Shown here piece by piece: positions 1-56,288 of a stretch of 56,288 nucleotides of DNA. Numbering within the stretch: the first letter of the stretch is position 1; each line of letters starts with the position of its first letter. Origin of the DNA: a virus (lineage: Duplodnaviria; Caudoviricetes); the IMG/VR virus record IMGVR_UViG_3300032893_000058, positions 1 through 56,288 of that record; one strand, written 5' to 3'. The notes beneath the pieces were generated by a model. That model made no database searches, was not told the DNA's origin, and saw only the letters and a list, made by a program, of their open reading frames with translations. The position numbers were made by a program, and so were the translations under genes.

Positions 1-127
1 CTGTGTGCCTGCCGATGCCTGGGCCGTACAGCCCGTGCCGCCTTCCTGTGCGCTCGTTAGCGCCCCTGTGCTCGTGTTGACGAAAATACAATAAGAGCCG
101 TTGGAACCTGAACTTGACGCCGTCAAC
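1..127. repeat. Terminal direct overlap (copy 1), identical to 56162-56288; circular-assembly overlap
   Basis: ctgtgtgcctgccgatgcc...gacgccgtcaac is present at both ends. It lies inside a continuous ORF, and 127 matches a common assembler k-mer length. Confidence 0.95.
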
Positions 128-2058
128 CCACTAATCGTGCCGCCGGCAACCGTCACAGTATTGCCGGCAACGTTGATATGGCCGGACGAAAAATTGATCG
201 CATTCAACGCCACAGTCACGTACACCGTGCCGCCACTGCCCGTACTATCAGTAATAGCAACTTGCGGCAGCGTGGTGTATGTTCCACCTGAAGCCGAACA
301 AGCCGTAATGGCATTGCCGCTTACGGTCAGGCCGACCGAACCACCGCCCGAACCGCCAAGATAATTATTGGCAGCTTGCAATGTCGCGGTCGGCGACCCG
401 CTATAACTGCCGCCCCCGGTGTTGACCGTGCAGCCCGATAACGCAACGGGTGTAACCGTGGCCACTAAGCCATCGATGATACTGGCCGTCCCAAAGAAGT
501 TCGAATCTGGTGTCGATGCCGGCACCACCGGCATTTGAGACACTGCGATTATGCCCGAAATGTCGCCGAATGCGGGCTGGCTTTGCGTGAATAACCCCGT
601 CGTCGACGTGTAGCTGTCCAAAAACTGATGCGACACTTTGGCCAGCGTAGCCGGGGGCGGGCCGCCGCTATCAGCCAGCAGCGAACCCAACGTGTTGTTC
701 CATGTCGCAATATGACCGGAAGTCGAACTTCCAGGCCCGGTGACGCCGAAGCTTGAACTTACGGAAACGGTGTTAACTGGGGGCGAACCAACCGGCCCGC
801 AGACAAGGCCCACGCCGCAAATGATGTCGCCGATCATGCCACCGAACGAGACGACGCCACCCGCGCCGCTCGAATTCGGCAATGCTTTGACGATGTAATT
901 AATCGTGATGGTTGGCTGAATGACGCCAAAATTGGCGCTAACCACGGGCGTGCCTGACCCGCCAGACGCCGCCGTACCGGTGACCGCGCTCGATGAAGCC
1001 GAAATACTTAATACACCTGGCCCAATTACAGCATTAAAACTACCACCATTGGCAACAAAAGCGGAGCTACCGCCCGCATTAAGCGGCGCATTTGCGTAAG
1101 TAATTGTCTGCGGCGCTGCCGTGCCTACTACCGTAAAATTGACGTTTGGCAAGTTGGCCTGCGCCAGCGTGGTAGTGGCAGCATCACTCTGATTGCCGCC
1201 AGCAATGGCCGGCGCTGCGGCGCTCGCGCCATAATAAGTGCTCGTCAGACGATTGGCCGCCGTGCCGCCCATTGCGTCGGCACCGGCAAACGTCCGGCCG
1301 CGCAAATCAGGTAAATTGAAAGTCGACACGCCGTTGCCATTACCCCACGGAAATACGGTAGCCGTAACCGTAGCGGTCAATGTTGCCGCCGCCGACACTG
1401 TCACCGAATTGGCGGACGGAATCGTCGCAATCGTCGTGCCGGGCGACAGGCAAGTCGCTTCAATTGGTTCACCGACCGCCATCTGCGACGTGTCAATAAA
1501 GCCGTTCAACGTGGTTGAAGACGACGTACACGAAATTCCGGTGCTGGCAATCGTGATGGCGGCCAATAATTGCGCGTAGGTCGTGCGCGACACCGGTTGC
1601 CCAGCCGCAATGAGCCAATTAGTCGGCACTGCAAATCCGGCCCACGGCATTACGGTGCCCAACGGCGCGGTATCGGTGCCGGTGGCGCCGGACGGGGCCG
1701 ATGCACCATACGCGGTGGTGATCGCGCTCCATTGTTGAACGCCGTTCGAATCCTTAACGGTCTGTTGGTAATTACCTTGGCCGTAGATGACGGCGCGGCC
1801 GGCGGCGTCCAGGACCACGGGGTCGGTATTCGGCGTCGTCTCACCGGAATCCTGCCACGTCGTCTTCGGCGTGTTGGTATTCGGAACGGTCAACGTCACT
1901 GTGCCGTTCGACAGCGGGGCGCCGTTCTGGTCGACGAACGTTTGCTTGGCATTCGGCAACAGCGCCGCGGTCTGCGCCCATGACGGCATGACGCCAAGGA
2001 TCAGCGACCAGCCAATTAGCCAAGTCGCGGTATTTAAGCGGTTCAACCAGGTTTTCAT
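1..2058 (-). CDS. Long tail fibre, 5' part (continues across the origin into 56161->53555; total about 1554 aa); N-terminal signal peptide, virion-attachment domain, tail-collar domain
   Basis: Not in the ORF track because it runs off the edge. My translation from ATG 2058 (ATGA overlap with the upstream stop) reads MKTWLNRLNTATWLIGWSLILGVMPSWA-QTAALLPNAKQTFVDQNGAPL...DPVVLDAAGRAVIYG. It has collar motifs GTVMPWAG/VSRTTYAQL/TFNLPDLRGR/QPTITINYIVK, no stop down to base 1, and is in frame with ORF 53555..56287. Confidence 0.9.
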   Translation of the reverse strand, partial: MKTWLNRLNTATWLIGWSLILGVMPSWAQTAALLPNAKQTFVDQNGAPLSNGTVTLTVPNTNTPKTTWQDSGETTPNTDPVVLDAAGRAVIYGQGNYQQTVKDSNGVQQWSAITTAYGASAPSGATGTDTAPLGTVMPWAGFAVPTNWLIAAGQPVSRTTYAQLLAAITIASTGISCTSSSTTLNGFIDTSQMAVGEPIEATCLSPGTTIATIPSANSVTVSAAATLTATVTATVFPWGNGNGVSTFNLPDLRGRTFAGADAMGGTAANRLTSTYYGASAAAPAIAGGNQSDAATTTLAQANLPNVNFTVVGTAAPQTITYANAPLNAGGSSAFVANGGSFNAVIGPGVLSISASSSAVTGTAASGGSGTPVVSANFGVIQPTITINYIVKALPNSSGAGGVVSFGGMIGDIICGVGLVCGPVGSPPVNTVSVSSSFGVTGPGSSTSGHIATWNNTLGSLLADSGGPPPATLAKVSHQFLDSYTSTTGLFTQSQPAFGDISGIIAVSQMPVVPASTPDSNFFGTASIIDGLVATVTPVALSGCTVNTGGGSYSGSPTATLQAANNYLGGSGGGSVGLTVSGNAITACSASGGTYTTLPQVAITDSTGSGGTVYVTVALNAINFSSGHINVAGNTVTVAGGTISGLTASSSGSNGSYCIFVNTSTGALTSAQEGGTGCTAQASAGTQ

Positions 2059-2471
2059 TGGTAGCTCACCGTGATGTCGCTGGCTGCGGTCGCCGTCACG
2101 ATGGTCAGCCCGGTCGTGAATGCAACATCATAAAACATCGTGACCGGTTGCGGTGACGCCGGCACTGTGATCGTGGCAATCTTGGTGCCCGACCCCGCGG
2201 TGTTGTCATAAACCGTCACCACCGTGGTCGCGACCGGCGTATTGAACGAAAGGGAATGCAGGATACCGGCCCCGGTCTTCAGCGTCGTCGTGGTGTCGGT
2301 CGTGATGTTGCCGTATTTAAATATATGAGCAACCACCAGCGGGTTGGTCTGTGAATACGGCTGCCACTTCGGATAACCGGTGCCGGGGAAGACCGGCTCT
2401 GCGGCGAAGGCTGCGACGCCGAACCAGGCGAGGACTGCGGCGACGAGCGACGTTCTGATCAGACTGAGCAT
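2055..2471 (-). CDS. Small beta-rich virion/appendage protein with signal peptide
   Basis: MLSLIRTSLVAAVLAWFGVAAFA-AE signal peptide; Thr-rich beta domain (KTGAGILHS...YDNTAGSGT...YDVAFTTGL) like small phage structural proteins; GGAGGG RBS. Confidence 0.75.
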   Translation of the reverse strand: MLSLIRTSLVAAVLAWFGVAAFAAEPVFPGTGYPKWQPYSQTNPLVVAHIFKYGNITTDTTTTLKTGAGILHSLSFNTPVATTVVTVYDNTAGSGTKIATITVPASPQPVTMFYDVAFTTGLTIVTATAASDITVSYQ

Positions 2472-2485
2472 CTTGCCCCTCCGGT

Positions 2486-2520
2486 GGAAGGAAGCGCGGG
2501 CGTTGTTCAGGCGCCCGCGC
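2486..2520 (-). terminator. Possible weak intrinsic terminator or processing hairpin
   Basis: 9-bp stem GCGCGGGCG/CGCCCGCGC (2494-2520), followed on the - strand by TTCCTTCC. Confidence 0.35.
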
Positions 2521-2555
2521 CAAGTCTAGGGAGGTTCACTTCACGCGCACTAAAT

Positions 2556-3893
2556 TCAGAGGCCAGTCCAGGCGTTGATAATGCCGGAACCAGCGTCGTC
2601 CATCAGCAAGGTCGCGGAACCCGCGGCCGGGAAGCCGGCAGACGACGTGCAATCGATCGGAACGCGGACGTTGGTGGCCGCGAAGCCGGATTGCAGCGTC
2701 GACGTGCGGGTCACGGTGCACGCGGTCTGCGCCGAGCACGCCGTAGTCGAGCACGACCCAAAGCCGGACGTGTACGACATGGTCGGGGTCTTGTACATCG
2801 GCACCGGGAACTGCAGGATGCAGGTTTCGAGCGAAGTGGTTGAGGACGTGCACGGCGCATGAACCGCACCGACCGCGCCTTCAACGATGCGATAAAAATA
2901 CTGCAGCGCATCCCTGTTTTCATCAGCCTTGGCCCGCACTTCAAACAGTGACGCGCCGGGGGCCTTTTCCAACTGGGCGCCGGTCCAGGCAAAACCGTCA
3001 GTCGCGCCGGAACCAGTCGCAGTCGGAGTGAAGCACAACATGACGCCGATTTCGGTCGCGGTCGACGGAATGGTCGCCGTGGTCGAATAACGCGCAAACG
3101 TGGTCGACAGGTTGATCGTCGTGTTGACCAGCGTCGCGATGCCGGTCCAGGCCGGCGTGATCGCAGGCGACGCCGTCCACGACTGCGTCAGACCTTCGTC
3201 GGTGCCGGTGCCAGTGATGATCACCAGGTTGGCCGTGCCGCCGTTGTCCGCGGCCAGACCCGCCAGCGCCGCCACGTAGGCCGACAGCGTGACCTGCTGG
3301 CCGGCAAGCATCGCCGACTGGGTCGCCGGCACCGCCTGCATCACGCACACCGGCTGGGTCAGCGCGCCGGAATTACGCCACACCTTCATCGCATTGGTAA
3401 AGCCGGTCGGCGGCGTCGGCGACGACGTCACGATGGCAGTGCGCCCGACGCCGGACCCAACGTTGGCGTCACAGCCCCAGCGATCCGCACTGAGCGCCGC
3501 GACGGTCATCGCCGACGTAGTGGCACAGGTCACGGTCGACGTGCCGTTGGTATTGGTGATATTGAGCGCGCCGTTACCGAGGAAATTGCGCGGCGTGCCC
3601 CAGGTCGAGCCGGCGGCCTGAGACAACGGCACCAGCACCGTTTGCGGGCCGCCCCCGGTGGTGCGGGTATCGGCCGGCACCTGTTCGAGGCCAGTCATCG
3701 GCGGGCCGGCAGGCACGGTGTTCGTGCACTGTTGCGGCGTACCGGGGCCGCCCGGCTGGTTGAATGACGAGCAATACGACGCGCCGCCGACGATGGGGAA
3801 GTTCGGCCACAATCCGGCCGCGTGAACGGCGAGCGGCACCAGCAACGCAGCAACGGCCGCCCCCGCGATAACCTTAACGTAGTTCCTATTCAT
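2556..3893 (-). CDS. Tail-fibre-type carbohydrate-binding-like protein with signal peptide, 12 Cys
   Basis: Signal peptide ...LLVPLAVHA-AG. The motifs RNFLGNG...ADRW and GAQLE...FEVR...LQYFY match the common phage tail-fibre pattern N.IING...ADRW...GVQLE.G...FE.R...CQRYY. Confidence 0.8.
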   Translation of the reverse strand: MNRNYVKVIAGAAVAALLVPLAVHAAGLWPNFPIVGGASYCSSFNQPGGPGTPQQCTNTVPAGPPMTGLEQVPADTRTTGGGPQTVLVPLSQAAGSTWGTPRNFLGNGALNITNTNGTSTVTCATTSAMTVAALSADRWGCDANVGSGVGRTAIVTSSPTPPTGFTNAMKVWRNSGALTQPVCVMQAVPATQSAMLAGQQVTLSAYVAALAGLAADNGGTANLVIITGTGTDEGLTQSWTASPAITPAWTGIATLVNTTINLSTTFARYSTTATIPSTATEIGVMLCFTPTATGSGATDGFAWTGAQLEKAPGASLFEVRAKADENRDALQYFYRIVEGAVGAVHAPCTSSTTSLETCILQFPVPMYKTPTMSYTSGFGSCSTTACSAQTACTVTRTSTLQSGFAATNVRVPIDCTSSAGFPAAGSATLLMDDAGSGIINAWTGL

Positions 3894-3923
3894 AGTCAGT
3901 CTCCCTTGCGAAAGCGCGCCGCG

Positions 3924-4217
3924 TCACTTGCCGGCCGGCGCTCCGGTTGCCGGCGCTTCATTCTTGGCCTGCGCCGCGGCCAACTGTCGTCGCAGATCGG
4001 CGATAACGCCCGCCGCCGCGAGATTCTGTTGCGAACACTGCGTGTTGTTGACGATGAGCGCACCCAGCGTGGCTTCGAGGCTCTTCTGCGTCGCCTGGGC
4101 AATATCAACCTGCGGCTGTGCCTGAACCTGTGCTGCCTCAGCCGGCGGCAAAGTGTCCGCCGCCATCGCGACCGAACTGAAGGCCAGCATCATCGCAACC
4201 AAAACTGATACACGCAT
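3924..4217 (-). CDS. Secreted coiled-coil protein (97 aa)
   Basis: True start is ATG 4217 after AGGAGAG; MRVSVLVAMMLAFSSVAMA-AD signal peptide; Gln/Ala-rich helix. Confidence 0.75.
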   Translation of the reverse strand: MRVSVLVAMMLAFSSVAMAADTLPPAEAAQVQAQPQVDIAQATQKSLEATLGALIVNNTQCSQQNLAAAGVIADLRRQLAAAQAKNEAPATGAPAGK

Positions 4218-4231
4218 CGTTCTCTCCTGGT

Positions 4232-4693
4232 TTAAACAAACTCGACTTCGATCTTGTGTGGAATCGGCTGGCCGTTCGGCCCGGAATGTTCGACCTGCTG
4301 CTTGCGGTACTTGTTGCGCCGACCGCCGAGGATCATCTGCATCAGCGCGTCGCTGTATTCCTGAACATGACCAACGCACTCACCGCCTTGATAGACTGGC
4401 TTCGACACGCCGTCGACGGCACGGCGCCGCGCCTCGTCCTCGATCACGTCGGTGCCGCGCTCGATGGCCTGCTCGACCCGCGCATTAAAATTCTGGTCCT
4501 TCCGCCATTCAAGCAGCGTCTGGCGCGAAATGTTGGCCTTGTCCGCCGCATAACCGACCGTGTAGCCTTTTTCGAGCCACGACACCACGCAGTCTTCGGC
4601 TTCCCGGCTGCGCTTGTGTTGAAACGGATTGCCGTTCGACTTGTCGCCGGTCGCCGGCATCTGAGGCTTGCGCGGAGGGCGGGGCTTCTTCAT
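4232..4693 (-). CDS. terS: Terminase small subunit (putative)
   Basis: HTH (AADKANISRQTLLEWRK) followed by IEDEARRRAVDG...YSDALM...KYR and a C-terminal VEHSGPNG.PI, typical of this TerS family. Confidence 0.7.
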   Translation of the reverse strand: MKKPRPPRKPQMPATGDKSNGNPFQHKRSREAEDCVVSWLEKGYTVGYAADKANISRQTLLEWRKDQNFNARVEQAIERGTDVIEDEARRRAVDGVSKPVYQGGECVGHVQEYSDALMQMILGGRRNKYRKQQVEHSGPNGQPIPHKIEVEFV

Positions 4694-5097
4694 GCCGGCA
4701 ATCCCAGGCTGGCATCGATCACCATCGCCGTAAACAGCGTGGCGCGCGTCTCGTTGTCCATCGGCCGCAGCACGCCGGGGTCGTCGGCCCGCAGCATGAC
4801 GAAGCCGTCATCGTCCTCACGCTTCAATAACCGGTTGACGAGAGACTGCGGCAAGCGCACCGGCTGATTACCACGATGGACGACGCGCACCACGCCTGAA
4901 GTCTGTCGGATCGGGTCGATGCCGCGGCCATCATCGGCAACCAGCAGCGTGCGAGCCAGCAGCGGGCGCTCGATCACCCGGTCACGCCGCGTGTAGCGCG
5001 TCAACAACAGGAGCACGTCAAACGAGCGTGCCGCCAGGCTGCGCCTGACGCGCTCTTCACACTGGGGTGCGGTACGGACGATGAAGAACGACGGCAT
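4690..5097 (-). CDS. NusG/RfaH-like antitermination factor (NGN domain only)
   Basis: FFIVRTAPQCEERVRRSL...ERPLLARTLLV...IRQTSGVVRVV...PVRLPQSLVNRL is an NGN pattern; start ATG 5097 after GAGGGG; first gene of the late arm; no KOW domain. Confidence 0.7.
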   Translation of the reverse strand: MPSFFIVRTAPQCEERVRRSLAARSFDVLLLLTRYTRRDRVIERPLLARTLLVADDGRGIDPIRQTSGVVRVVHRGNQPVRLPQSLVNRLLKREDDDGFVMLRADDPGVLRPMDNETRATLFTAMVIDASLGLPA

Positions 5098-5177
5098 CCA
5101 ACCCCTCAACCTAAAGTCGAGCCGTGCGGCCGGTATTTCGATTGACGCGCCGGCCCGCGACGATTGTTTCGAACCGC

Positions 5178-5208
5178 CCCATATCACGCCGCGGGGGGTT
5201 TCGTCAAG
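5178..5208 (-). promoter_or_regulatory. Putative leftward (late-arm) promoter
   Basis: CTTGACG-N18-TATGGG with TG upstream of the -10, about 80 bp before the NusG-like gene. Confidence 0.4.
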
Positions 5209-5264
5209 TTCCCGGAACCGAGGCGGCGAGGCCATGAATGTGGAGTGCGGTGAGACGGGCCTAC

Positions 5265-34592: not shown

Positions 34593-34593
34593 C

Positions 34594-36199: not shown

Positions 36200-37678
36200 T
36201 CATGTTTCGCTTTCCTCGCTGTCGTCGACGTACACGCCGTTCAGCGCGGTCTTCAAGTTTTCGGCCCACGATAGTTCATAGACGCGGTCGCGGCACATGC
36301 CCAGCCGCGTGAACTGTGGACTTTCATCGAACTGACCGGTTTGGCCCATAGTGGTGGACAGCGGGTCGCTGAAGGTCCGGCCGCGGTCGTCGCTGTAGCG
36401 CATGAATAGTTGCGGGTCGTAGCTTTCTTGCGCCACTTCACCGCACTGAATGTCCACCACCATGCGCCAGTGCGTGATCCGGTTCATTTCGTCAAGCACG
36501 TGCGGGAAGCCGCGGACGCACAAGATCGGCTGGCCATTGTCGGTAAAAGTATCCATGTCAAGCTGATACAGCGCCCCGGTCTGCCAGTCCTGCGCTATTA
36601 CCATGCCGTAGGCATTGGCGTAGAACGTGGCGCGGTCGCGGTTCAGATTGCCGTCATTATCCAGCCACGCTTGCTGGTGCCATTGGCGCGTCGCCAGATC
36701 GAATGCCCACGACTTGTTGGCGGTCGGGAAATGCAGCACATAGAACGTATGACCATCCAACTGATAAGTGCCGGCGATGGCGTCAGCAAGCGTCGCGTAG
36801 CTCTGCCATTCCTGTTCGAGCGCGTGCGTCGAAATGCGTTCGACCGCGTAACCGCTCGACATCACCGCGATGCCCTGCCCCTTCAAATCCTGCGACAGCC
36901 AACACAGGCTCACGTCGAGCGACGCCAGCGAATAGGGCGCGACGCAGCCGTACGGAATGAAGGTCGACGCGACCGGGGCAAACGGAAACACCGCGCCGCC
37001 GGCCAGATACCAGGGTTCGGTCGTCAACTGGCCGATCAGCCAGATTTCGCGCTGCCGCATCGCCAACGTCGCCACGTTGTCGGCGTAGCCTGATTTCGAG
37101 GCGATGTCGAGTGCGTTAAACGACACTGAATTGAGCAGCGAAGAATAAAAATACGGGGTTCCCGGCGCGTTGAACACGAAAAAGCCGCCGTCATATTCGA
37201 CGCGCGTCGCTCCGACGAATGTTCCAGTGCCATCGACCAACGCCGCCATGTTGTTGGTCGTCATGTTGATGGTCCAACCGTTCGTCGTGTTGTCGACCAC
37301 GACGATGTCGTTGCCTACGTCCATGCCGTTGTCGGCAAAGCTGATCGGCGTGGTCTGGCCGGCGGTGACGTTGCCCAGTGCGTGGAACACCAAATTGATA
37401 TCGACGTAATAGAGCGTCGTACCGACGACGGCGTACAGATTGCCGTTAGTGGCGCGATACAGACCGCGGCCTATGCCTTGTACCGGCGGTATGGCAAGCA
37501 ATTTCTTTCCCGGCCGCGGGTAGTGCGTGACCGGAACCGGCGGCTGCGTCTGACCCAGCGTCTTGGTGCCCGGCACTGGGCTGTGGGGGTTGTCCTCAGG
37601 GTACAAGTTCACGCAGCGTTGCGCGTTCGCAATGACGCTGCGTGAACTATAAGCACCGCTGAGTAACGGTAGCAGCAT
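36200..37678 (-). CDS. Tail hub / packaged-DNA stabilization protein (P22 gp10-like)
   Basis: VNLYPE, beta-propeller-like body, GHTFYVLHFP, YSDD.G.TFS, RLG..RDRVY. Confidence 0.85.
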   Translation of the reverse strand: MLLPLLSGAYSSRSVIANAQRCVNLYPEDNPHSPVPGTKTLGQTQPPVPVTHYPRPGKKLLAIPPVQGIGRGLYRATNGNLYAVVGTTLYYVDINLVFHALGNVTAGQTTPISFADNGMDVGNDIVVVDNTTNGWTINMTTNNMAALVDGTGTFVGATRVEYDGGFFVFNAPGTPYFYSSLLNSVSFNALDIASKSGYADNVATLAMRQREIWLIGQLTTEPWYLAGGAVFPFAPVASTFIPYGCVAPYSLASLDVSLCWLSQDLKGQGIAVMSSGYAVERISTHALEQEWQSYATLADAIAGTYQLDGHTFYVLHFPTANKSWAFDLATRQWHQQAWLDNDGNLNRDRATFYANAYGMVIAQDWQTGALYQLDMDTFTDNGQPILCVRGFPHVLDEMNRITHWRMVVDIQCGEVAQESYDPQLFMRYSDDRGRTFSDPLSTTMGQTGQFDESPQFTRLGMCRDRVYELSWAENLKTALNGVYVDDSEESET

Positions 37679-37681
37679 TTG

Positions 37682-38092
37682 TTACGCCGTCTTAATGGCC
37701 GCCCATGAGCCGTTTTTACTGCAAAAAAATAGCGCCGCTTGCGTGGTTGTCAAAGCGTAAGCATTGGCCGTCGCCGCGGTGTTGATGGTGTCAGTGCCCT
37801 GACCATAAAGATCAAGCGTATGTGCACCGGCATTGTACACCATCAACGCCGTACCGGCGATCGCTTTCGGCAACAAGCAGCTATCGGCGTCAGCCGCGAC
37901 CGTGTCCACTTCTAATAGATGCACGTTAGACGGAAGCTGCAGCGCCGCCGCCTTGGTGCCGCCCGCATGTGCAGTGAAACCGTTTTGATAGGTGAAATTG
38001 ATGCCGCCGGCCAGGCCGCGGAGCCATTTCCCATCAATCAGGCCGAAGCCGATGCCCTTGGGGGCGTTACCTGAATTCTGCGTCGTCGCCAT
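37682..38092 (-). CDS. Small virion protein (paralog of 35603..36040 C-domain)
   Basis: G.TA..G....ALQL...EV.TVAA...V.NAGA..L..Y shared pattern. Confidence 0.7.
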   Translation of the reverse strand: MATTQNSGNAPKGIGFGLIDGKWLRGLAGGINFTYQNGFTAHAGGTKAAALQLPSNVHLLEVDTVAADADSCLLPKAIAGTALMVYNAGAHTLDLYGQGTDTINTAATANAYALTTTQAALFFCSKNGSWAAIKTA

Positions 38093-38146
38093 AGCTTTGC
38101 TCCTGGTTCTAAGGTTAGTCGAAGGGTGAAGACGCCTTTACGCGAA

Positions 38147-38440
38147 CTAATGCTGCTGCGGGGGCGGCGGTGCCGGCGATTGCGTCATTCCCGCCATCTG
38201 CGCTTTGAGCGCCTCGATCTCCTGGTCGCGCTCCGCCATCTGCGCTTTGAGCGCCTCGATCTGTTCTTCCGGCGTGGGTTCCGGCACGTATTCCGGCACT
38301 TTCACGGCGTCATCGTGCGTGGCGTAAAAGTCGTCTTCCTCGTGCTTGTCGCGCACGACGATGATGTTGCCGGCTGTGTCGCGGTAAGGGTGACCAGCCT
38401 CGTTGCGCGGCATCAGGGGGTAGCGTTGCGGTGCGTCCAT
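38147..38440 (-). CDS. Small head-region protein (paralog of 39195..39710)
   Basis: RYPLMP...G.P..D..G..IV.R....ED.FYA.H; AGGAGG RBS. Confidence 0.75.
   Translation of the reverse strand: MDAPQRYPLMPRNEAGHPYRDTAGNIIVVRDKHEEDDFYATHDDAVKVPEYVPEPTPEEQIEALKAQMAERDQEIEALKAQMAGMTQSPAPPPPQQH
38191..38262. repeat. Direct repeat, 30 bp identical, period 42 bp (IEALKAQMA x2)
   Basis: ccgccatctgcgctttgagcgcctcgatct at 38191 and 38233. Confidence 0.9.
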
Positions 38441-38454
38441 GTCAAGTCCTCCTG

Positions 38455-39183
38455 TTAGAATTGATCGCTCAAGATGTTATACCCCGGCGAGTTGGAAGTC
38501 AGTTCCTTTGGAATAACCAGTTCGGGAATCTGCAAATTGGCGTTCTTGATCACGTTGAGCGAGTAAGTCGCAAGCCGGTTCAATTCGGTGTCGGGCTTCA
38601 TGCCCTTGCCGTATGCCTGTCTGTACCAGCGCGCCAGATTAAATTTCATGCCCGGCAGATATTCGGCCGGAACGGTGCTCATGTCGGTGTTGAGCGTCAC
38701 TACCGGTAGCACGTCGGCAAACGACAGTCCGAGTGCGTAAAGGTTGGCCTGCGGCACCGGGTAAGCATTGACGATGGCCAGCGGATATGCGGTTTGCAAG
38801 AACACGTACTGAGTGAACGAAATGAGCGACGGCAGCGCGATGCGATCCCATTCTTCTTGCGACGACACCACCGTGACCGGTTGCCGGACCTGAAGATTGG
38901 GTGGGTAGGTCAAAATCTTGATGTAGGCCGCCTTAATGCGGTTCGGGCGCGGCGTTATGTTGTAATCACCACCGGGGCCGGCGGTGTAAGTCAGCGCGCC
39001 GGTTGCTACTTTCTCAATGGTGACCTGATCCCACACCATCCAGCGCTCGCGGTTCCAGAGCGCCAGCATATCGTTGAAGTCGGCCAGCCCGTCGCTGATA
39101 TCATCGGCCGACGCCGGACGGCCCACGCCCAGCACGCCGCTCTTCTTGAGAGCGAAGGTGATGATGTCGCGGGCCGTCGTCAT
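38455..39183 (-). CDS. Head-tail adaptor (P22 gp4-like)
   Basis: TARDII..ALK..GV..G......D..D.L...NDML..W; C-terminal YNILSD. Confidence 0.8.
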   Translation of the reverse strand: MTTARDIITFALKKSGVLGVGRPASADDISDGLADFNDMLALWNRERWMVWDQVTIEKVATGALTYTAGPGGDYNITPRPNRIKAAYIKILTYPPNLQVRQPVTVVSSQEEWDRIALPSLISFTQYVFLQTAYPLAIVNAYPVPQANLYALGLSFADVLPVVTLNTDMSTVPAEYLPGMKFNLARWYRQAYGKGMKPDTELNRLATYSLNVIKNANLQIPELVIPKELTSNSPGYNILSDQF

Positions 39184-39194
39184 GCGTCAATATC

Positions 39195-48982: not shown

Positions 48983-50326
48983 TTACAGGTTCATCCATCC
49001 GTTGGGGCTGTCGCCCGACCGCAGCGAACTTTCACGTTCGATGGCGGCGCCTTCGTCGCCTGTGTCCTGTTCTTTTTCCTTTTTGTTGCCCTCGCGTAGT
49101 TCTACCGCGTAATAGCCGAAGGCTTTCGCACCGTGCGACGCCCAGTTATGCTTCGGGGTCTTTGACCGCTGGTTGGTGTGCGGGTCGACGTCGTATTGGT
49201 AATGTTGCAACGACAGCACGCCTTGCGAACAGTCGACTTCATTGATGTTGATGCGCGGAAATAGCGCGCGGGTCGCGCTGATCTGATTGACTTCCGGAAT
49301 GTTCGGCACGATGCGCACGATGCCGGGCGTCGGCAACAGTGCCTTGACCTGCTTTTCGATGGTGTTGTGCACCAGCCCGCGCGCTGCTTGGTGCGCCTGC
49401 CGGGCGTCATGGGGTAACAGCACCCGCTTGATGATGTAGCCGCGGGCCTGAAGCTCTTTGATGAAGTAGCCGATGTCCTTCGCCACGTCTTCCATGTAGA
49501 AGATGGCGTTGTGATCCATGCTGATTTGCTGAAACACCCAGCAGGCGCAGGCGTCCGAATCGCCGAGATCAAATACGACGGTAACGCCGCGCCCGGCGTC
49601 GTGCTTGATGCGCGGCGACACGCGACCATCTTCGATGGCCTTGCCCAGTTCCTTGGCATAAATGGCGCCGCTTAATGCGCGCCGCGGCCTGCCTTCCCAT
49701 ACGTTCAAATATTCGTCATAGTCCTTGGCCCGCATATCGAGCATCTGGCGTTCCGACGTTTTCGGGAAGAACGGATTGTCCTTATAGTTCATGACGATGA
49801 CGATGGCGCCTTCCGGCGGGTCAATCACGAACATCTTGTAAGTATCATCGGTGACCAATTCCGGGTTGAGATCAATCCAGATTTCCGACCCCTGTTTGAA
49901 CGGTCCGGCCGGCGGGTCGCGCCGCACGGTCGGCAGCAGCACGCGCCACTTGGCCTTCGACACGTGGGCCGCTTCCATTACCCACAAGATGTCGATGCCC
50001 TCGGTCGAGCGGACCGAATTAATGTTGTTCAGGCCTGTAAATACGAACGTCGTGCCGTTGACACCCCGAATTTCGGTTTCGAGCGTCTGATAAAAACCGC
50101 CCAGTCCGATCTGCTCCGACTGCTCGGAAATGACGCGGTGCAACGAGTCCTTGATCGAGCGTTGCACTTCACGAGCACATACGATGAACAGCTTCCGGTG
50201 AGAGCCGAGAATGAGAGCGGCGCGGGCAAACGACCACGACGCCCCTTTGCTGCGCCCGCCGCAGATTACCTTGTACGGCGCGGGCGTAAAGATCGGCTTG
50301 ACTTTATCGGGAAACTGAACCTTCAA
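48983..50326 (-). CDS. terL: Terminase large subunit (PBSX-like)
   Basis: GGR P-loop region, CAREVQ.SI.DS, LLPTVR, NP, DNPFF, FDLG..D, LPHDA, H.WASH. Confidence 0.9.
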   Translation of the reverse strand: MKVQFPDKVKPIFTPAPYKVICGGRSKGASWSFARAALILGSHRKLFIVCAREVQRSIKDSLHRVISEQSEQIGLGGFYQTLETEIRGVNGTTFVFTGLNNINSVRSTEGIDILWVMEAAHVSKAKWRVLLPTVRRDPPAGPFKQGSEIWIDLNPELVTDDTYKMFVIDPPEGAIVIVMNYKDNPFFPKTSERQMLDMRAKDYDEYLNVWEGRPRRALSGAIYAKELGKAIEDGRVSPRIKHDAGRGVTVVFDLGDSDACACWVFQQISMDHNAIFYMEDVAKDIGYFIKELQARGYIIKRVLLPHDARQAHQAARGLVHNTIEKQVKALLPTPGIVRIVPNIPEVNQISATRALFPRININEVDCSQGVLSLQHYQYDVDPHTNQRSKTPKHNWASHGAKAFGYYAVELREGNKKEKEQDTGDEGAAIERESSLRSGDSPNGWMNL

Positions 50327-50682
50327 CGCGGCACCTTTTCTGCCCGCAACGTCTGAATTGCGGCTTCATGGTCCTTCACTTGCTGCTTCATTTCGTTAAA
50401 CTGCAGTATATGATCGGCAAATGAAGTCGTAATCCGCGTGAGAGCGACAGTCGTCTTATCCTGGTTTTCCGCGATCCGGCTCATGGCTTGCCAGACGCGC
50501 GTATTGTCGCCGTCGACCTTGGTCTTGATGTCGGAAAGCTGGGCCTGAGCCAGCCATAACGCAATCGCACCCAACGCACTGATGGCGAGCAACAGACCGC
50601 GCATTGCCCACGCGGCAGTGCGTTCTTTCGTCTCGGTAATCGATTTGAGCAGTGACAATGACCCGTTTCCAGCTTCCGACAT
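50323..50682 (-). CDS. Single-TM coiled-coil membrane protein (lysis region)
   Basis: TM GLLLAISALGAIALWLA followed by a coiled coil. Confidence 0.65.
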   Translation of the reverse strand: MSEAGNGSLSLLKSITETKERTAAWAMRGLLLAISALGAIALWLAQAQLSDIKTKVDGDNTRVWQAMSRIAENQDKTTVALTRITTSFADHILQFNEMKQQVKDHEAAIQTLRAEKVPR

Positions 50683-50722
50683 CGCGTATCTCCGTCTTCT
50701 TGGGTCTGACGACTACGTGCCT

Positions 50723-51433
50723 CTAGGGCACAATTGGCACCAGGGGCGCCACCGATGCCCCCGAAATGATCGCACTGACGATCTGCAGTACGGACTTTTT
50801 CGATGCGTCCGCCATGGCCGCGCAGTTAATCTGAATGTCGCCGCCGGTCTGCAGCGACTGAATAAGTTCGCTCACCTTCTCGGCGTCGGTAAAGACATGA
50901 ACTGGCGGTAGGGGCGGCGTCGTGCCGCCGGTCGTCGATGCCGGTGGATTGAGGACCGCTTGCTGCTTCTGCACCATGTTCACAACGGCGGTCCAGCACG
51001 GCGCCGTCACCTTGTTCGGCATCGCATTGGCGAGCGCCTGAGCATTTTGCAGGTCGGCCAGTGCGATGTTGTTGATGTTCTTGATCAGATTGGCGACAGC
51101 GGTTGCCGGCGTCGTCGAACCATTCTGCGCGCGGGCCGGCGTGCCGAACAGGACGAACAAGATGAACAGCGGCAACAGCAGCCAGGCCAGAACCGCCTTC
51201 GTACCGGTCGGCAGCGTCGCACTGGTCAGCGGACCGGCTTTGCTTGACGCAATGCCGGTAAGCGCCGTCAGCACGACGCCGTTGATCTGCGCGGCAAGAC
51301 CAGCAAACCATTGAACGTCGGGCGCGTATTGCGCGATGATGGGCGGCGCTTGCTGCACGCCGTAGCCGGCGATGAGAATCAAGACGTTGGTCAAAACCCC
51401 GAACCAGAACGTGAACTTGGCGTCGACTTGCAT
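50723..51433 (-). CDS. Holin-like multi-TM protein with C-terminal exported domain
   Basis: Two N-terminal TMs, a third TM ending in PARA-Q, then a helical domain with 2 Cys. Confidence 0.55.
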   Translation of the reverse strand: MQVDAKFTFWFGVLTNVLILIAGYGVQQAPPIIAQYAPDVQWFAGLAAQINGVVLTALTGIASSKAGPLTSATLPTGTKAVLAWLLLPLFILFVLFGTPARAQNGSTTPATAVANLIKNINNIALADLQNAQALANAMPNKVTAPCWTAVVNMVQKQQAVLNPPASTTGGTTPPLPPVHVFTDAEKVSELIQSLQTGGDIQINCAAMADASKKSVLQIVSAIISGASVAPLVPIVP

Positions 51434-51434
51434 T

Positions 51435-52121
51435 TTACCCTCCGTTTAGTTCCAACAGTGCAAGGCCCGCGGCCACGTCAGCGTGTGCCGCACCGAGTGA
51501 GTGGCCGGTAAAAACGACGGCATCTAGCCCGGCGAGCAGAGGCTTGATTGCCTTCCATGTCTCGGCCATGCCGATGACGAAGCCGTCCCACATTCGGCCA
51601 AACTTGTCGTGATCGACCACGCCTTCTGCCGCGTGGTCAATGCCAGTCAGATCGCGCAGCCAGTCGAGCTTGTCGTCCGAACCGCGAAACACGACATAGG
51701 CCGTTTTATCTTGGAACTTCAGCCCCCAGCACACGCCGGCCGTGACCTGGAATTCGTCCCACGTCTGCGGCGCACTGCTGTCCAGGACGTAGATGTCGCG
51801 ACACAGCCCGACGCAAAATTGGTGCTGCTCCGGAATGCAGCCGTCCTTGGCCCCGGTCACGTACAGTTCGACGTGATGCCATGCAAACATGCCCCAGTGA
51901 TCGCCGGTCGCGGGCGGTGCCGATATCAACTTCAAGTCAGTAGGGTGGCGAAAATTTAATCCGAGAATGGGCACGGTCAACGGCACATCGGTGACACGGT
52001 CGTGCTGCAGCGGCCCGGTGTAATTGCAATAAGATATGCTCTCGTCCAAACCCTTAAGTAGGGTTGCGAACACCGGGCCGCCAGGTTTTGGCTCGCCGAA
52101 GACGATGCGTTGCAGCTTCAT
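51435..52121 (-). CDS. Class-3 lipase, circularly permuted
   Basis: VVFRGS...DWLRDL...FTGHSLGAA at the C-terminus; VFGEPKPG, HDRVTDVP and WHHVELY at the N-terminus. Confidence 0.75.
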   Translation of the reverse strand: MKLQRIVFGEPKPGGPVFATLLKGLDESISYCNYTGPLQHDRVTDVPLTVPILGLNFRHPTDLKLISAPPATGDHWGMFAWHHVELYVTGAKDGCIPEQHQFCVGLCRDIYVLDSSAPQTWDEFQVTAGVCWGLKFQDKTAYVVFRGSDDKLDWLRDLTGIDHAAEGVVDHDKFGRMWDGFVIGMAETWKAIKPLLAGLDAVVFTGHSLGAAHADVAAGLALLELNGG

Positions 52122-52122
52122 C

Positions 52123-52683
52123 TTATTGTCGTGCTTTCCAGCACTCTATGACCGTGTTGAACATGGTATCTTGCGCCTCACCGAAGTCGCCGGGGTGCGC
52201 GTCTTGCCGCTTGATCGTCTCGATCTTGGTCGTCTTGTTGCCGGGCGCTGGCACGTAGGTCGCATGACCAAGGGCGCCCGTCTCAAAGATGACCGGGTTG
52301 CGGAAGCACAACGCCCGTACGACGTTCGCCGGCACGTTGACGGCGCGCGTGATGAGATCGTCGCCATCCGGGATCGACACTTCATGCATGACCGGGTCCC
52401 AGTCCGAAGGCTGAAAACCGCCAACGAAGTCGACCTTCTGCGGGTTAAGGTAGCCGGCGAAGATCGGCGCTGCGCCTGCGCCGAGGCTGGCGCCGACGAT
52501 GCCGCAAAATCCGACGAAACGGTGTAAAAAATCGTAAGTCTTCTGGCTGTCGGTATGTTGCACCAAGATCGTCTCGATTCCTTCCTTACTGAGGCGTTGC
52601 TGAAATGCGGGTAGATTGATCGGATCAGCCGCGGCGCCGAACTGCCCGAACACGACCGAAACGCGTGCAGGGACGAGGGTCAT
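52123..52683 (-). CDS. Small alpha/beta hydrolase
   Basis: Nucleophile elbow IVGASLGAG; C-terminal His (DAHPG). Confidence 0.65.
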   Translation of the reverse strand: MTLVPARVSVVFGQFGAAADPINLPAFQQRLSKEGIETILVQHTDSQKTYDFLHRFVGFCGIVGASLGAGAAPIFAGYLNPQKVDFVGGFQPSDWDPVMHEVSIPDGDDLITRAVNVPANVVRALCFRNPVIFETGALGHATYVPAPGNKTTKIETIKRQDAHPGDFGEAQDTMFNTVIECWKARQ

Positions 52684-53558
52684 TGCGTTACTCCCTGATG
52701 TTGCTTCATTGCCGCGGTAAGTGCGGCGTCGGTCTTTTCCCCGAACAGCCCGTCCGGCACCAGCTTATTGAACCGCTGGAATGAGCGCACCGCTTCACGC
52801 GTCCGGCGCCCATACGAACCGTCCACCTTCAACGCGTCGGCCGCCGGCAGATAGCAGGTGTTAAGTGCCTGCTGCACCCAGCGCGTGTCATGCGGCCCGA
52901 TCACCGAGACGCCGACTGCCGGGCCGCCGACGCCATGCGGTAACGGTTGCGGCGGCGGGACGATGGCAAGCGTGTCATGTGCCGGTAAATTATCAAACGC
53001 AAGATCGGGCCGCAACGCGATCAGCCGGCGCATCACCGGAATGATGCCAAGCTGCTTGTCGGTTTCCCGCGCGTCCCATTCGTTGTCGGCCACATATTTT
53101 CCGCGCACGTATAGGCTGGTGCCGGACCATAAATAACCGGTGCGGATGCCGTGACTGCGCGGGCCAAACCCGTTCCACGCTTCGCCCTTCCAGCACACAT
53201 AAGACCACGACCATGGCGCCGAATTGTCGTCCAGGTGATCGTACCGAATGTAAAAGATGTCGGCGTCGAACTTGGACGACCATGGCCCCTTGCCGCGCGG
53301 CACGTTGCGCGATACTCGATTCCATGGATCGCCCTGTCCGATGGCGCAGTGCGGGTTGGCATCATCCTCACGCTGATCGAGCGCTGCCAGGAACGCCGCC
53401 GGCACCTTAACCACTTCCTGCTCGCGCAGATATAAGTCCATCTTGGGCAACAGCGACTGCGCCACCTTGTCTACTTCGATGGGGCGCGTTACTTTCATTG
53501 CCGCGAGATCGGCTTCGTATTCGGGGCGCAGGACTTGATATGGGTGCTGCATGGTCAT
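52680..53558 (-). CDS. Endolysin (lysozyme-like) with C-terminal peptidoglycan-binding domain
   Basis: RE...GQGDP...VPRGKGP...E.WNG.G...YLWSGT..Y..GKYVAD...D.QLG; PG-binding VDG.YG..T..AV..FQ....L..DG..G..T. Confidence 0.85.
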   Translation of the reverse strand: MTMQHPYQVLRPEYEADLAAMKVTRPIEVDKVAQSLLPKMDLYLREQEVVKVPAAFLAALDQREDDANPHCAIGQGDPWNRVSRNVPRGKGPWSSKFDADIFYIRYDHLDDNSAPWSWSYVCWKGEAWNGFGPRSHGIRTGYLWSGTSLYVRGKYVADNEWDARETDKQLGIIPVMRRLIALRPDLAFDNLPAHDTLAIVPPPQPLPHGVGGPAVGVSVIGPHDTRWVQQALNTCYLPAADALKVDGSYGRRTREAVRSFQRFNKLVPDGLFGEKTDAALTAAMKQHQGVTQ

Positions 53559-56288
53559 TGCCAAGTTGTACTCGACATTGCACTTTGTAAGTATGACACG
53601 CCTTGCGTACCATAAAAGGTGCAGCCGGTGGTGGTGCTGGAAAATTCCAAGGCCGCCAGCGTATGAAAGCCTAACGGAGCGACGCCTTCATAGCGGCCCA
53701 CTACCTGGGTAAATTGCCCAACAAACGAACTGAACAGGAATGCGCCACTGGGCGCCGTCGTGCTGTCCAACCCGACGCCGACGGAACAATTGGTAGCAGT
53801 TCCCGCTGCCGTTTCGCCGTTGTACACCGCATCGATGGCGTCTTCTGACACGCCCTCCAAAAATTGAGTTTGCATACCGGCCGAAGCATTAACTTGGTGC
53901 CAGGAAGCAGTATTCCAGGTCCAACTGGCGGCATTATCGCCGACCATCGTCTTGATCGAAACGCGATTGTAATAATTATACAGTGCATAAAGCCCAGCTG
54001 TGGCATGGCCCCCCGACGTGCCTATCGCGCCGAATGTAAAGCTAGTCTGGCCGTTGGCCGTCGCGTATAATGAACCAAGATAAGTACCTTGGTCAGCCGC
54101 AACAGTGCCGAAATCGGTCGTCCCGCTGGCACCGCCATAACAATGTGTCAGCGAATTCTGGTTAGTCAGGAACCCCACAGTCATATTGACGTGAATTTGC
54201 GTCGTGCCGGCACCCGTGCCACGCGTGCTGGTGGTGCTCCACGCCGGACCGGCGCAGATCGCGAGCGTTCCTGAATTGTTGATCGCGAATACGTCATAAA
54301 CGCTGCCGCTGGCAATGTGCGGCGTGACGGCATCCAACCCCATCGAAATTTCGCAACTGCCGATGGCCAGGAACGTTGCCTGAGTGCCGTTGTACACCGC
54401 GACGTTCGGACCTTTATAACAATCTAAGAAGACCGTGGTCTTGGCCGATTGCGTGGTGGTCATGACCGGCGTAGCACTCTGCAGCGTCAACCGGCCTTGA
54501 CTTGCCGACAAGTTGCTCAGGACCCAGGCGGGCAGGCCGCCGGAATTTCCCAATACTTGACCTGCGCTGCCAACTGCTAGGCGCGCAAGATGCGTGCCTG
54601 AATCGCGATAATAAGTGTCGCCGGTCGCATCGGAACCTAGCGACATCGTCACTGTGCCGAGCGTGTCGGTATTTGAGGTAATGGTCTTGTTCGTCAGCGT
54701 GTCTGTCGTTGCTTTACCAACCAGCGTGTCCGTGGCCGCAGGGAACGTCAGCGTGCCGCTCGCTGTGGCGCTAGCGTTCAGCGTGGTCGAGCCACTGGAC
54801 GACCCGTTCAAAATCAAATCGCTGGAATTAAAACTCTGCGCCGCGGACCACGTCTGCGCCAGATTAAGTTCTGCAACGATGCCGGTGTTCGCAGGCAACG
54901 TTGCCGTTCCGCTTGCCGTGGCGCTGGCATTCAACGTCGTCGAGCCGCTAGACGAACCGTTCAAAACCAGGTCGCTGGAATTGAAGCTCTGCGCCGCGGA
55001 CCAGGTCTGAGCGAGATTTAATTCGGCGATTATGCCGGTGTTGGCTGGCAACGTTGCCGTACCACTGGCAACCGCAGTGGCATTCAGTATAGTGTTACCC
55101 GAGGAAGAACCGCCCAGGAACAGATTATTGGAGGCAATGACGATGTTTGAGCCGTTGCTCGTCACCCCGGCCACGCAGCCAAAGGCGCCGGCGGCGTTGT
55201 ATTGCAGCGAAAGAGCCGTAGTTGTACACGGCGTACCTGAACCGCCACTGACGTTGGTCCAACTCATCACGCCAGCCGTGGTCGAAGTCAGCGAATAACC
55301 ATTGCCGGCCGGCGGCGCCGCGGGCAACGTATAAGTGCCGCTGACGGTGGTGGGGGTGGCAAACGAAACTGAGCCGCTGTTTGCGTACAACGTCAGCGAC
55401 TGCGTCGTAAGCATTTTCTTATTATCCAGGTAATAGCCCATGGCATTACCCAGATTGTTGGTTCCGTTGCCGCACATATTGATCGTGCTGGGGCCTTGAT
55501 CGGCCATCGTCACGCCGCCACTCGGCAACGCAAACTGGCCGCAATGCGCCGTAATACCGCCAGTTTCTTCACCCGCCATCAGACCAGAGCGAATTTCAAA
55601 GCGTGGCACGACCGAAGGGACCGACAGTGCCTGCGTATCGATACCCACGGTCGAGAAGATTTGTGCGGCTTTTACGTCCTTATAGCTATTACCAGCCGTA
55701 CCGACTGACACAATCTTGTTTAGCCACTGGGTGTAGCCAAATTCCAGTGTCGTGTTACCGTTGAGCGCGAAGGCGTTGATGCCCAGCAGATAGTCACCCG
55801 ATTGTTGCGTACGTGCAGTGTTTACTCGATAGTAGGAGAGAACCGGCCCCACATCAAGCGTTGTCCCATACGGAATGGGCGTGATATCGGCGGAGAAAAT
55901 TTCCTGGAAGTTGCTGTTAGAGAAACAGCCGGTATTAAGCTTTGGCGCCCCGACAGGGCAATTGTTGGGCGGCCCTGCAGGACCAGGTAAGCCGGTCTGA
56001 TCCAGATAACTAGATGATACAATGGGAAAATCCTTCGAAGTAGTCCAGAAATCGAAGCTACCCGCCCCCGAGCGCTTCATCACGCCTTTATAGGCAATAA
56101 TGTCTGTATTAGTCGCAGGCGGGCCGCCAAAATGAGCGCTCGTCACGATTTCTGCCAGGGCCTGTGTGCCTGCCGATGCCTGGGCCGTACAGCCCGTGCC
56201 GCCTTCCTGTGCGCTCGTTAGCGCCCCTGTGCTCGTGTTGACGAAAATACAATAAGAGCCGTTGGAACCTGAACTTGACGCCGTCAAC
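53555..56288 (-). CDS. Long tail fibre, 3' part (continuation of 2058->1)
   Basis: In frame with the 5' part through the 127-bp overlap; Ser/Thr/Gly-rich; GRLTL.S.TPV.T...YN.YNRV C-terminal fibre domain. Confidence 0.9.
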   Translation of the reverse strand, partial: LTASSSGSNGSYCIFVNTSTGALTSAQEGGTGCTAQASAGTQALAEIVTSAHFGGPPATNTDIIAYKGVMKRSGAGSFDFWTTSKDFPIVSSSYLDQTGLPGPAGPPNNCPVGAPKLNTGCFSNSNFQEIFSADITPIPYGTTLDVGPVLSYYRVNTARTQQSGDYLLGINAFALNGNTTLEFGYTQWLNKIVSVGTAGNSYKDVKAAQIFSTVGIDTQALSVPSVVPRFEIRSGLMAGEETGGITAHCGQFALPSGGVTMADQGPSTINMCGNGTNNLGNAMGYYLDNKKMLTTQSLTLYANSGSVSFATPTTVSGTYTLPAAPPAGNGYSLTSTTAGVMSWTNVSGGSGTPCTTTALSLQYNAAGAFGCVAGVTSNGSNIVIASNNLFLGGSSSGNTILNATAVASGTATLPANTGIIAELNLAQTWSAAQSFNSSDLVLNGSSSGSTTLNASATASGTATLPANTGIVAELNLAQTWSAAQSFNSSDLILNGSSSGSTTLNASATASGTLTFPAATDTLVGKATTDTLTNKTITSNTDTLGTVTMSLGSDATGDTYYRDSGTHLARLAVGSAGQVLGNSGGLPAWVLSNLSASQGRLTLQSATPVMTTTQSAKTTVFLDCYKGPNVAVYNGTQATFLAIGSCEISMGLDAVTPHIASGSVYDVFAINNSGTLAICAGPAWSTTSTRGTGAGTTQIHVNMTVGFLTNQNSLTHCYGGASGTTDFGTVAADQGTYLGSLYATANGQTSFTFGAIGTSGGHATAGLYALYNYYNRVSIKTMVGDNAASWTWNTASWHQVNASAGMQTQFLEGVSEDAIDAVYNGETAAGTATNCSVGVGLDSTTAPSGAFLFSSFVGQFTQVVGRYEGVAPLGFHTLAALEFSSTTTGCTFYGTQGVSYLQSAMSSTTWQ
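54750..55120. repeat. Tandem 153-bp (51-aa) repeat, about 2.4 copies, in tail fibre
   Basis: LNA.A.ASGTATLPANTGI.AELNLAQTWSAAQSFNSSDL.LNGSSSGSTT repeated; anchors at 54774, 54927 and 55080. Confidence 0.9.
56162..56288. repeat. Terminal direct overlap (copy 2)
   Basis: Identical to 1-127. Confidence 0.95.

Follow-up and report, generated by a model that had tools for sequence, protein, structure and literature searches.

According to the textbooks, tailed phages are put together entirely within the reducing cytoplasm. Whether some of them make their receptor-binding parts elsewhere is the question raised by a stretch of 56,288 nucleotides (nt), IMG/VR virus record IMGVR_UViG_3300032893_000058, which was analyzed at full length and is called the window here. 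Four consecutive late genes on its minus strand encode proteins of 97, 445, and 138 amino acids (aa) and a 1554-aa tail fiber. A first-pass annotation had reported that all four begin with a cleavable signal peptide and inferred that these parts are exported, folded by host enzymes, and joined to the virion at or after lysis, with action in the envelope as its alternative. Our evidence, all of it computational, gives good support to the export and oxidative folding of a receptor-binding module, as judged from signals that are conserved while they drift and from even, paired Cys residues in three protein families. The probable course for the fiber is export, folding beyond the cytoplasm, and addition to the particle at lysis and not before.

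The record ends in an identical 127-bp repeat (nt 1 to 127 and 56162 to 56288) and is therefore circular. It is a complete circle of 56,161 bp from a P22-like podophage, carried in IMG/VR as a virus with terminal repeats and a CheckV completeness of 100. Matches to its portal include the P22-like portals of Pseudomonas phage PAE2, Rhodoferax phage P26218, and Xanthomonas phage PBR31. Feature positions are given in Table 1.

Signal peptides and translation starts

The four open reading frames (ORFs) and their starts were confirmed, and each begins with a signal peptide of n-h-c type, with a positive n-region, an uncharged hydrophobic h-region, and small residues at -3/-1. The cleavage motifs claimed for the 97-aa protein (AMA-A), the 445-aa protein (VHA-A), and the fiber (SWA-Q) are present. 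For the 138-aa protein, the claimed cut (AFA-A) holds by eye, whereas the best site by our heuristic lies two residues earlier. This heuristic, a crude in-house score of the n/h/c regions and the -3/-1 residues, was applied to 29 curated late-operon proteins. The four genes were among the five best, scoring 4.42 (97-aa protein), 4.40, 4.08, and 3.29 (fiber); the fifth, a 149-aa protein, scored highest (5.12), and the next scores were 3.19 (a 186-aa protein, borderline) and 2.94. The fiber score is the weakest of the four, borderline alone and carried by the homologues.

The context of the start codons favors the long forms. Strong Shine-Dalgarno sequences (AGGAGA, GGGAGA, and GGAGG) precede the 97-, 445-, and 138-aa genes, with AGGAGA at the 97-aa gene, and the fiber ATG overlaps the stop codon of the 138-aa gene (ATGA) behind GGTGAG. 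An internal fiber codon, Met24, lies 7 residues before the following domain and has no Shine-Dalgarno sequence. Translation from Met24 was rejected, since most homologues have no Met at this position yet keep the extension. Several relatives (loci L064, L065, L066, L109, L116, L118, and L127) have no in-frame ATG, GTG, or TTG at all between the first start and the domain. Two other signal types were also rejected: a twin-arginine (Tat) signal, because none of the four N termini contains RR, and a lipoprotein signal of the Cor/Llp type, because there is no lipobox and no Cys at the cleavage regions.

Within this genome, Cys density is 1.43% in five signal-bearing proteins but 0.31% in a set of 14 proteins of the head, tail, and ejection apparatus, 7 of them Cys free. 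The Cys-free proteins (888, 499, 361, 774, 293, 242, and 171 aa) are encoded at 29370 to 34604, 38455 to 39710, 41152 to 42033, and 43847 to 46171 on the minus strand. The first-pass annotation had seen no phage Dsb gene, and PF01323 (DsbA) and PF13462 (Thioredoxin_4) are indeed absent from the record, other thioredoxin families not having been searched. No NCBIfam family matched any of the four proteins.

A head-binding domain behind the fiber signal

The fiber gene crosses the junction of the circle and continues from 56161 to 53555, reaching a total of 1554 aa. Positions 1 to 4217, to which the cassette had been assigned, hold only the first 686 fiber residues, the rest lying at 53555 to 56161. 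Annotation of the linear record would split the gene into two open-ended ORFs. The claimed length and the 20 Cys residues as neighbors both held up, the residues forming 10 pairs: 177/203, 414/420, 543/587, 657/677, 754/765, 893/916, 998/1015, 1267/1289, 1322/1360, and 1478/1533.

The protein does not begin at its first conserved domain; a signal-like extension of 28 to 30 residues stands directly in front. That domain, described earlier as a virion-attachment domain, is predicted by modeling to have the P22-type head-binding fold. AlphaFold2 (AF2), supplied with 52 sequences, modeled the fiber N terminus at a predicted local distance difference test (pLDDT) score of 80.8, with a helix at residues 3 to 22, a low-confidence linker at 29 to 34, and a beta domain. 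Foldseek matched the domain to the N termini of the cyanopodophage tail fibers of Pan3 (9VYG) and Pam1 (7EEQ), to the P22 tailspike head-binding domain in crystals (1LKT, 2VKY) and in situ (8TVR/8EB7/9JG6), and to the Sf6 tailspike N terminus (7SG7/7UKJ), with E values of 1e-4 to 9e-3 and template modeling (TM) scores of 0.45 to 0.55 over 78 to 103 columns. A sequence search of the PDB with the N-terminal part of the fiber and with the 138-aa protein gave no match. Among cultured phages, tblastn aligned fiber residues 31 to 113 with residues 2 to 84 of tail proteins from Rhodoferax phage P26218, PAE2, Ralstonia phage P4282, and Manatee Spring podovirus, all of which begin at the domain. An apparent upstream extension in the Manatee Spring record was discarded, being broken by a stop codon.

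The collar domain reported in the first pass is present (PF07484, 48.4 bits versus a cut-off of 24). The part of the fiber encoded at 53555..56288 belongs to no Pfam, PHROG, or NCBIfam family, and segments of the C-terminal part match fiber-like ORFs in L033/L035, L014, L043, L112, and L127. In the translation, the shaft at residues ~1040 to 1190 contains near-identical repeats of ~48 residues.

Signals and cysteine parity in fiber homologues

Two sets of fiber homologues were compared. The database set comprised 87 homologues of the fiber N terminus, and the IMG/VR set comprised 67, namely, the best 80 of 465 confirmed relatives minus 9 incomplete and 4 duplicate ORFs. An extension of 17 to 45 aa with a hydrophobic core is present in 64 of the 87 database homologues, another 21 start with the domain itself, and 2 are ambiguous; in the IMG/VR set, 40/67 have an extension and 27/67 have none. 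The 64 signal-bearing database homologues have 61 different extension sequences, and extensions were found in low-GC-style and high-GC-style proteins alike. In the alignment, a variable start containing K/R is followed by an uncharged hydrophobic stretch, small residues before Gln/Ala, and then the sharply conserved domain. Homologues without a signal start two to three residues before the LLPN motif, and the predicted cut in the fiber would create an N terminus equal to this natural start. The retention of signals across hundreds of homologues, while their sequence drifts, supports export.

The two classes also differ in their Cys residues, counted after the extension (mature Cys). An even number was found in 62 of 64 signal-bearing versus 8 of 21 signal-less homologues in the database set (Fisher 2e-8; binomial 2e-16), and the IMG/VR set replicated this (38/40 versus 10/27; Fisher 3e-7). 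Counts in the signal-bearing database homologues range from 2 to 22, and these many different even numbers reflect different C-terminal parts of the fibers. Of the signal-bearing fibers, 62/65 and 63/63 contain the 177/203 pair, versus 3/18 and 2/19 of the signal-less ones, and the 414/420 pair has a similar pattern. The covariation of signal and even, paired Cys, which the first-pass annotation had proposed to look for, extends to three families: the fiber, the 445-aa protein, and the domain of the 138-aa protein.

The three smaller proteins

The 12 Cys residues of the 445-aa protein were confirmed. This protein has >361 relatives, and the following counts come from the best 120. A clear signal was called by the heuristic in 117 of them, the other three appearing to be cut at the 5' end, and all 117 signal-bearing relatives have an even number of mature Cys (6, 8, 10, or 12). 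Cys columns are gained and lost in pairs (41/56, 123/141, 183/287, 348/358, and 381/386; phi, 0.93 to 1.0). The 12 Cys residues would form 6 disulfides. AF2 modeled it at pLDDT 81.6 as an N-terminal helix and two beta-sandwich domains. Fold matches in the PDB were carbohydrate-binding modules of families CBM22, CBM4, and CBM16, TSP4 of phage CBA120, and a phi812 baseplate protein; in BFVD, they included many annotated phage tail fiber proteins (E values of 2.6e-26 to 1e-13; TMq up to 0.67). The matches to phage tail fibers and to the CBM jelly-roll fold bear out the description of this protein as having a typical tail-fiber domain.

Many relatives (L005, L007, L009, L016, and L042) encode a 445-aa homologue alone just upstream of TerL, with no adjacent fiber. 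In another podophage lineage, the homologue lies in a run of two to four signal-bearing, Cys-carrying, fiber-like proteins (L013, 4400 to 9056; L014, 3564 to 9032; L019 to L021; L040, 6108 to 10338), placed between a tail gene and Cys-free ejection-type proteins. Runs of this kind in a second lineage indicate that the phenomenon is not limited to P22-like genomes.

The C-terminal domain of the 138-aa protein (2055 to 2321, minus strand; 90 residues) is an almost exclusively viral module with 2607 relatives and belongs to no Pfam, PHROG, or NCBIfam family. Among relatives P0210 to P0359, the domain stands alone or, often, at the C terminus of longer proteins (up to 945 aa). The nearest ESM Atlas clusters to the 138-aa protein are 91 to 100% viral, with a CUB/MAM-like fold at low TM. 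We classified the best 150 of the 2607 relatives and set aside 11 as intermediate. The 44 signal-bearing proteins comprised 38 with an even, nonzero number of Cys, 2 with none, and 4 with an odd number, versus 11, 64, and 20, respectively, among the 95 signal-less proteins (Fisher 2e-17). The 97-aa protein found only itself among 5.8 billion proteins and matched no Pfam/PHROG family above the cut-off.

Genomic context

Gene neighborhoods were examined at 19 of the 80 IMG/VR fiber loci. At many of these (e.g., L060, L061, L071, L075, L076, L079, and L126), a signal-bearing fiber comes after two large Cys-free ejection-type proteins, and behind it lie genes for endolysin-like proteins, small membrane proteins, and lipobox (o-spanin-type) proteins. 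This position is the canonical tailspike slot of P22-like genomes, and it points to diderm hosts. Further small signal-bearing proteins often lie near the fiber in relatives, and no other fiber gene was seen in the window or in those related loci.

In the window, the late operon on the minus strand is headed by a NusG-like protein (PF02357; E, 1.2e-9) and a small helix-turn-helix (HTH) protein, named by eye as terminase-small-subunit type (4232 to 5235). The 97-, 445-, and 138-aa proteins, the fiber, and a lysis-like cassette follow, and after these come TerL, the portal, the 149-aa protein, a 774-aa protein, the scaffold, the capsid, the adaptor and hub genes, and the ejection proteins. The order is unusual in that ~10 kb of fiber cassette and lysis-like genes lies between the HTH/NusG-like genes and TerL (48983 to 50326, minus strand). 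PHROGs identified a DNA-ejection protein and an ejection-type protein with a cell wall hydrolase domain. Considering that the fiber domain matches in situ structures of P22 and Sf6, the tail hub genes (36200..39183, minus strand) would, by analogy, encode the docking site of the fiber N-terminal domain.

The lysis-like cassette encodes a 294-aa PG_binding_1 protein, the 186-aa protein, a 228-aa Lipase_3 protein, and proteins of 236 and 119 aa with hydrophobic N-terminal segments by eye. Homologues of the 228- and 236-aa proteins follow a signal-bearing fiber in L077, where the Lipase_3 homologue comes after the fiber and an endolysin-like gene. The Lipase_3 protein (51435 to 52121, minus strand) has a GHSLG motif and is possibly a membrane-attacking lysis accessory.

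The 149-aa protein (46175 to 46624, minus strand), whose gene lies between those of the portal and the 774-aa protein, contains a His-rich stretch and weakly matches TIGR02594 (cell wall peptidase-like; E, 0.003, below the cut-off). We regard it as a probable exported wall hydrolase. L098 encodes a similar signal-bearing His-rich protein, and L066 encodes a signal-less relative. A 169-aa ORF between the 774-aa and scaffold genes (42615 to 43124, minus strand) has a LAGLIDADG-like motif by eye and is a possible homing endonuclease. No tRNA genes were found in the record. GTDB gave two matches only, both metagenome bins (Terracidiphilus and Acidocella), which is weak evidence of a host.

Table 1. 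Features of the fiber cassette, tail hub, and lysis region in the 56,288-nt window
Feature	Position	Strand	Description
97-aa protein	3924..4217	-	Predicted signal, residues 1-19 (nt 4161-4217); then Ala/Gln-rich helical region; one Cys
445-aa protein	2556..3893	-	Predicted signal, residues 1-25 (nt 3819-3893); two jelly-roll (CBM-like) domains, tail-fiber-tip type; 12 Cys
138-aa protein	2055..2471	-	Predicted signal, ~residues 1-23 (nt 2403-2471); beta-sandwich domain, ~50-138; no Cys
Fiber residues 1-686	1..2058	-	Predicted signal, residues 1-28 (nt 1975-2058)
Fiber head-binding domain	residues ~31-117, nt 1708-1968	-	Predicted by AF2/Foldseek
Fiber collar domain	residues 134-168, nt 1555-1659	-	PF07484
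Fiber residues 645-1554	53555..56288	-	Gly/Ser/Thr-rich shaft with repeated segments; six further Cys pairs
Hc3/gp10-like head closure	36200-37678	-	PHROG 578; E, 1.6e-92
Ad3/gp4-like adaptor	38455-39183	-	PHROG 637/12985
Lysis-like cassette	50323..53564	-	Directly downstream of fiber; Pfam

Proposed assembly route and competing explanations

On balance, we think it fairly probable that the receptor-binding module of this P22-like podophage is encoded by the four genes, takes shape outside the cytoplasm, and is joined to the particles at lysis. The chains would cross the host SecYEG unfolded and be cut by signal peptidase I. Host enzymes of the DsbA/DsbC type would then form 10 disulfides per fiber chain and 6 in the 445-aa protein, and the fibers would trimerize in the periplasm while DNA-filled, fiber-less particles build up in the cytoplasm. 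When the inner membrane and wall give way to the lysis proteins, the fibers would dock by their N-terminal domain on the gp4/gp10-like hub, as the last assembly step, much as the P22 tailspike does. In this scheme, the lysis-like cassette would open the inner membrane so that particles and fibers can meet, and the lectin-like 445-aa protein, the beta-domain 138-aa protein, and the orphan 97-aa protein probably serve the periplasmic module as accessories in binding or assembly. The likely gain is a disulfide-stabilized fiber, with binding of receptors or glycans in the envelope of the infected cell as a side effect.

That the fiber joins the particle is suggested by its head-binding domain, its place in the tailspike slot, and the lack of any other fiber gene seen in the window or the related loci. 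That it joins fiber-less particles at lysis we infer from topology, the particles being cytoplasmic and the fibers periplasmic, and from the behavior of P22, whose finished heads take up tailspikes spontaneously to complete assembly. Israel, Anderson and Levine reportedly added tailspikes to P22 heads in vitro in 1967.

Several points weigh against this route. The signal calls come from an in-house heuristic and reading by eye, and the Cys pairing is read from sequence. The 138-aa protein itself has no Cys, the 97-aa protein is an orphan with one, and odd counts occur in 2/64 and 2/40 signal-bearing fibers. Overall Cys density is alike in the two classes of fiber (1.26% signal-bearing versus 1.17% signal-less; P = 0.39), so that only parity and pairing differ. 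Signal-bearing fibers cluster on the tree of the N-terminal domain, which is poorly resolved (95 residues), and the parity tests thus count related sequences. The best tree needs at least 5 state changes, its supported branches force only 1, and a test of signal against parity by independent contrasts had 1 to 4 usable pairs and no power. No cultured phage with a signal-bearing fiber was found among 50,697 phage records with five queries (the N-terminal part of the fiber, the 445-aa protein, the low-GC homologue P0172, a signal-bearing fiber-like protein of L013, and the 138-aa protein), which returned signal-less N-terminal matches, unrelated domains, or nothing. No Met-started ORF with an o-spanin lipobox occurs at 50.2 to 53.7 kb on the minus strand. 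Finally, joining after lysis would cost efficiency through dilution.

The strongest competing explanation, unlikely but deserving to be taken seriously, is that the proteins are exported without being virion parts and act in the envelope, by masking or destroying the receptor, excluding superinfection, keeping progeny off debris, or remodeling glycans. It fits the three smaller proteins best; these have no head-binding domain, and the 445-aa homologue often stands alone upstream of TerL. In known phages, moreover, the genes of the exclusion lipoproteins Cor and Llp adjoin receptor-binding genes. However, none of the four proteins has a lipobox, and the fiber has the conserved P22-type head-binding domain and occupies the tailspike slot, with no rival fiber gene in view; at 1554 aa, it would also be a costly decoy.

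Clearly less probable is the absence of export, in which the hydrophobic N terminus would serve as an assembly helix or as a transient tether to the cytoplasmic face of the membrane, and the Cys pairs would oxidize only after release into the environment. The moderate hydrophobicity of the fiber h-region (score, 3.29), the reliance of the signal calls on a heuristic, and the cytoplasmic assembly of tailed phages in every studied case are in its favor. Yet the n-region charge, the h-region, and the small -3/-1 residues are kept despite drift (64 homologues have 61 different extensions), homologues can do without the extension, and Cys parity and pairing track it in three unrelated families.

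A shade more doubtful again are two forms of the fiber, a long exported one with an envelope role and a short cytoplasmic one that starts at an internal codon (Met24) and goes onto the virion. Met24 is suitably close to the domain (7 residues), and some phage depolymerases exist in both free and virion-bound forms. But Met24 lacks a Shine-Dalgarno sequence, several homologues have no in-frame start between the first start and the domain, and a cytoplasmic form would leave 20 Cys residues unpaired. Hardly credible is the idea, raised for the fiber by the first-pass annotation, that the signals are artefacts of ORFs extended upstream of their true starts, as the long open frames of high-GC DNA might allow, for it is already contradicted by the ribosome-binding sites and stop-start overlap at the long starts and by retention of the extension in 64/87 and 40/67 fiber homologues and 117/120 homologues of the 445-aa protein.

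A broader form of export followed by joining at lysis, which we regard as evenly balanced, is that a large set of uncultivated podophages of diderm bacteria, with genomes of both low and high GC, builds its virions in two compartments, with heads and hubs made in the cytoplasm and the whole receptor-binding apparatus in the periplasm by means of host Sec, signal peptidase, and Dsb enzymes. The two halves would meet only once the holin opens the inner membrane. If so, the export and disulfide machinery of the host would be essential phage host factors, and a periplasmic pool of fibers could mask the receptor during the latent period.

If receptor-binding proteins of a widespread group of phages are exported and disulfide bonded, completion of the virion would be coupled to lysis, and Sec, LepB, and Dsb would be host factors and possible resistance loci. 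Such fibers could not be correctly produced or engineered in the cytoplasm, and automatic annotation that takes signal-bearing phage proteins to be nonstructural would mislabel them. A signal peptide combined with an even number of Cys would be a simple marker that can be carried over to viromes in search of further cases.

Comparison with known systems

A full-text search, with supplements and subscription journals outside its scope, found no paper describing Sec-exported tail fibers or tailspikes of tailed phages. In the part of a survey of prophage carbohydrate-active enzymes that bears on the subject, signal peptides are reported in 5% of these enzymes, with tail fibers excluded (PMC13507307). 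The relevant passages of two other papers mention signal peptides only for lysis-type proteins (PMC10975493, PMC3338817).

Several kinds of phage protein use the same export route. SAR or otherwise signal-bearing endolysins, spanins, Cor/Llp, and Lom/Bor are tailed-phage proteins that use host Sec, and some are encoded beside fiber genes. To our knowledge, none of these exported lysis and moron proteins is a structural part of the virion, and the fiber described here has neither a lipobox nor the features of a SAR-type anchor. Inovirus g3p is a receptor-binding virion protein with a Sec signal and periplasmic disulfides, and the fiber would resemble it in both respects. In contrast, inoviruses assemble at the membrane by extrusion, with no lysis, whereas the particle here is icosahedral, tailed, and presumably built in the cytoplasm.

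Bacterial proteins offer a second comparison. The MAT fibers of Bdellovibrio bacteriovorus are described, in the portions of the study that concern their architecture, as having a signal peptide, a conserved beta-rich N-terminal domain, a phage-like trimeric fiber, and variable disulfide-containing tips (PMC10769870). By that description, phage-type fibers can be exported and fold outside the cytoplasm. MAT fibers, however, are encoded on the chromosome of a predatory bacterium, which displays them on its surface; they are not virion parts and are likened to the fiber here by architecture. WceF of Pantoea stewartii is a bacterial glycan-modifying protein with a tailspike-like fold, for which the text mentions "signal peptide" three times (PMC7949094). 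It is a host enzyme with no head-binding domain and is not part of a phage genome.

There is a close likeness to the P22 gp9 and Sf6 tailspikes and the Pam1/Pan3 fibers, which share the predicted N-terminal head-binding fold. As in the P22 type, a gp4/gp10-like hub is encoded, and the gene slot is the same in relatives. According to the part of PMC3357383 that deals with the native P22 tailspike, it has no disulfides and binds the capsid by its N-terminal domain. The P22, Sf6, and Pam1/Pan3 proteins begin at the domain and fold in the cytoplasm, whereas in the present fiber the domain stands behind a Sec-type signal and the Cys residues occur in pairs. The tailspike or tail fiber is a known kind of protein, while its assembly route is possibly new.

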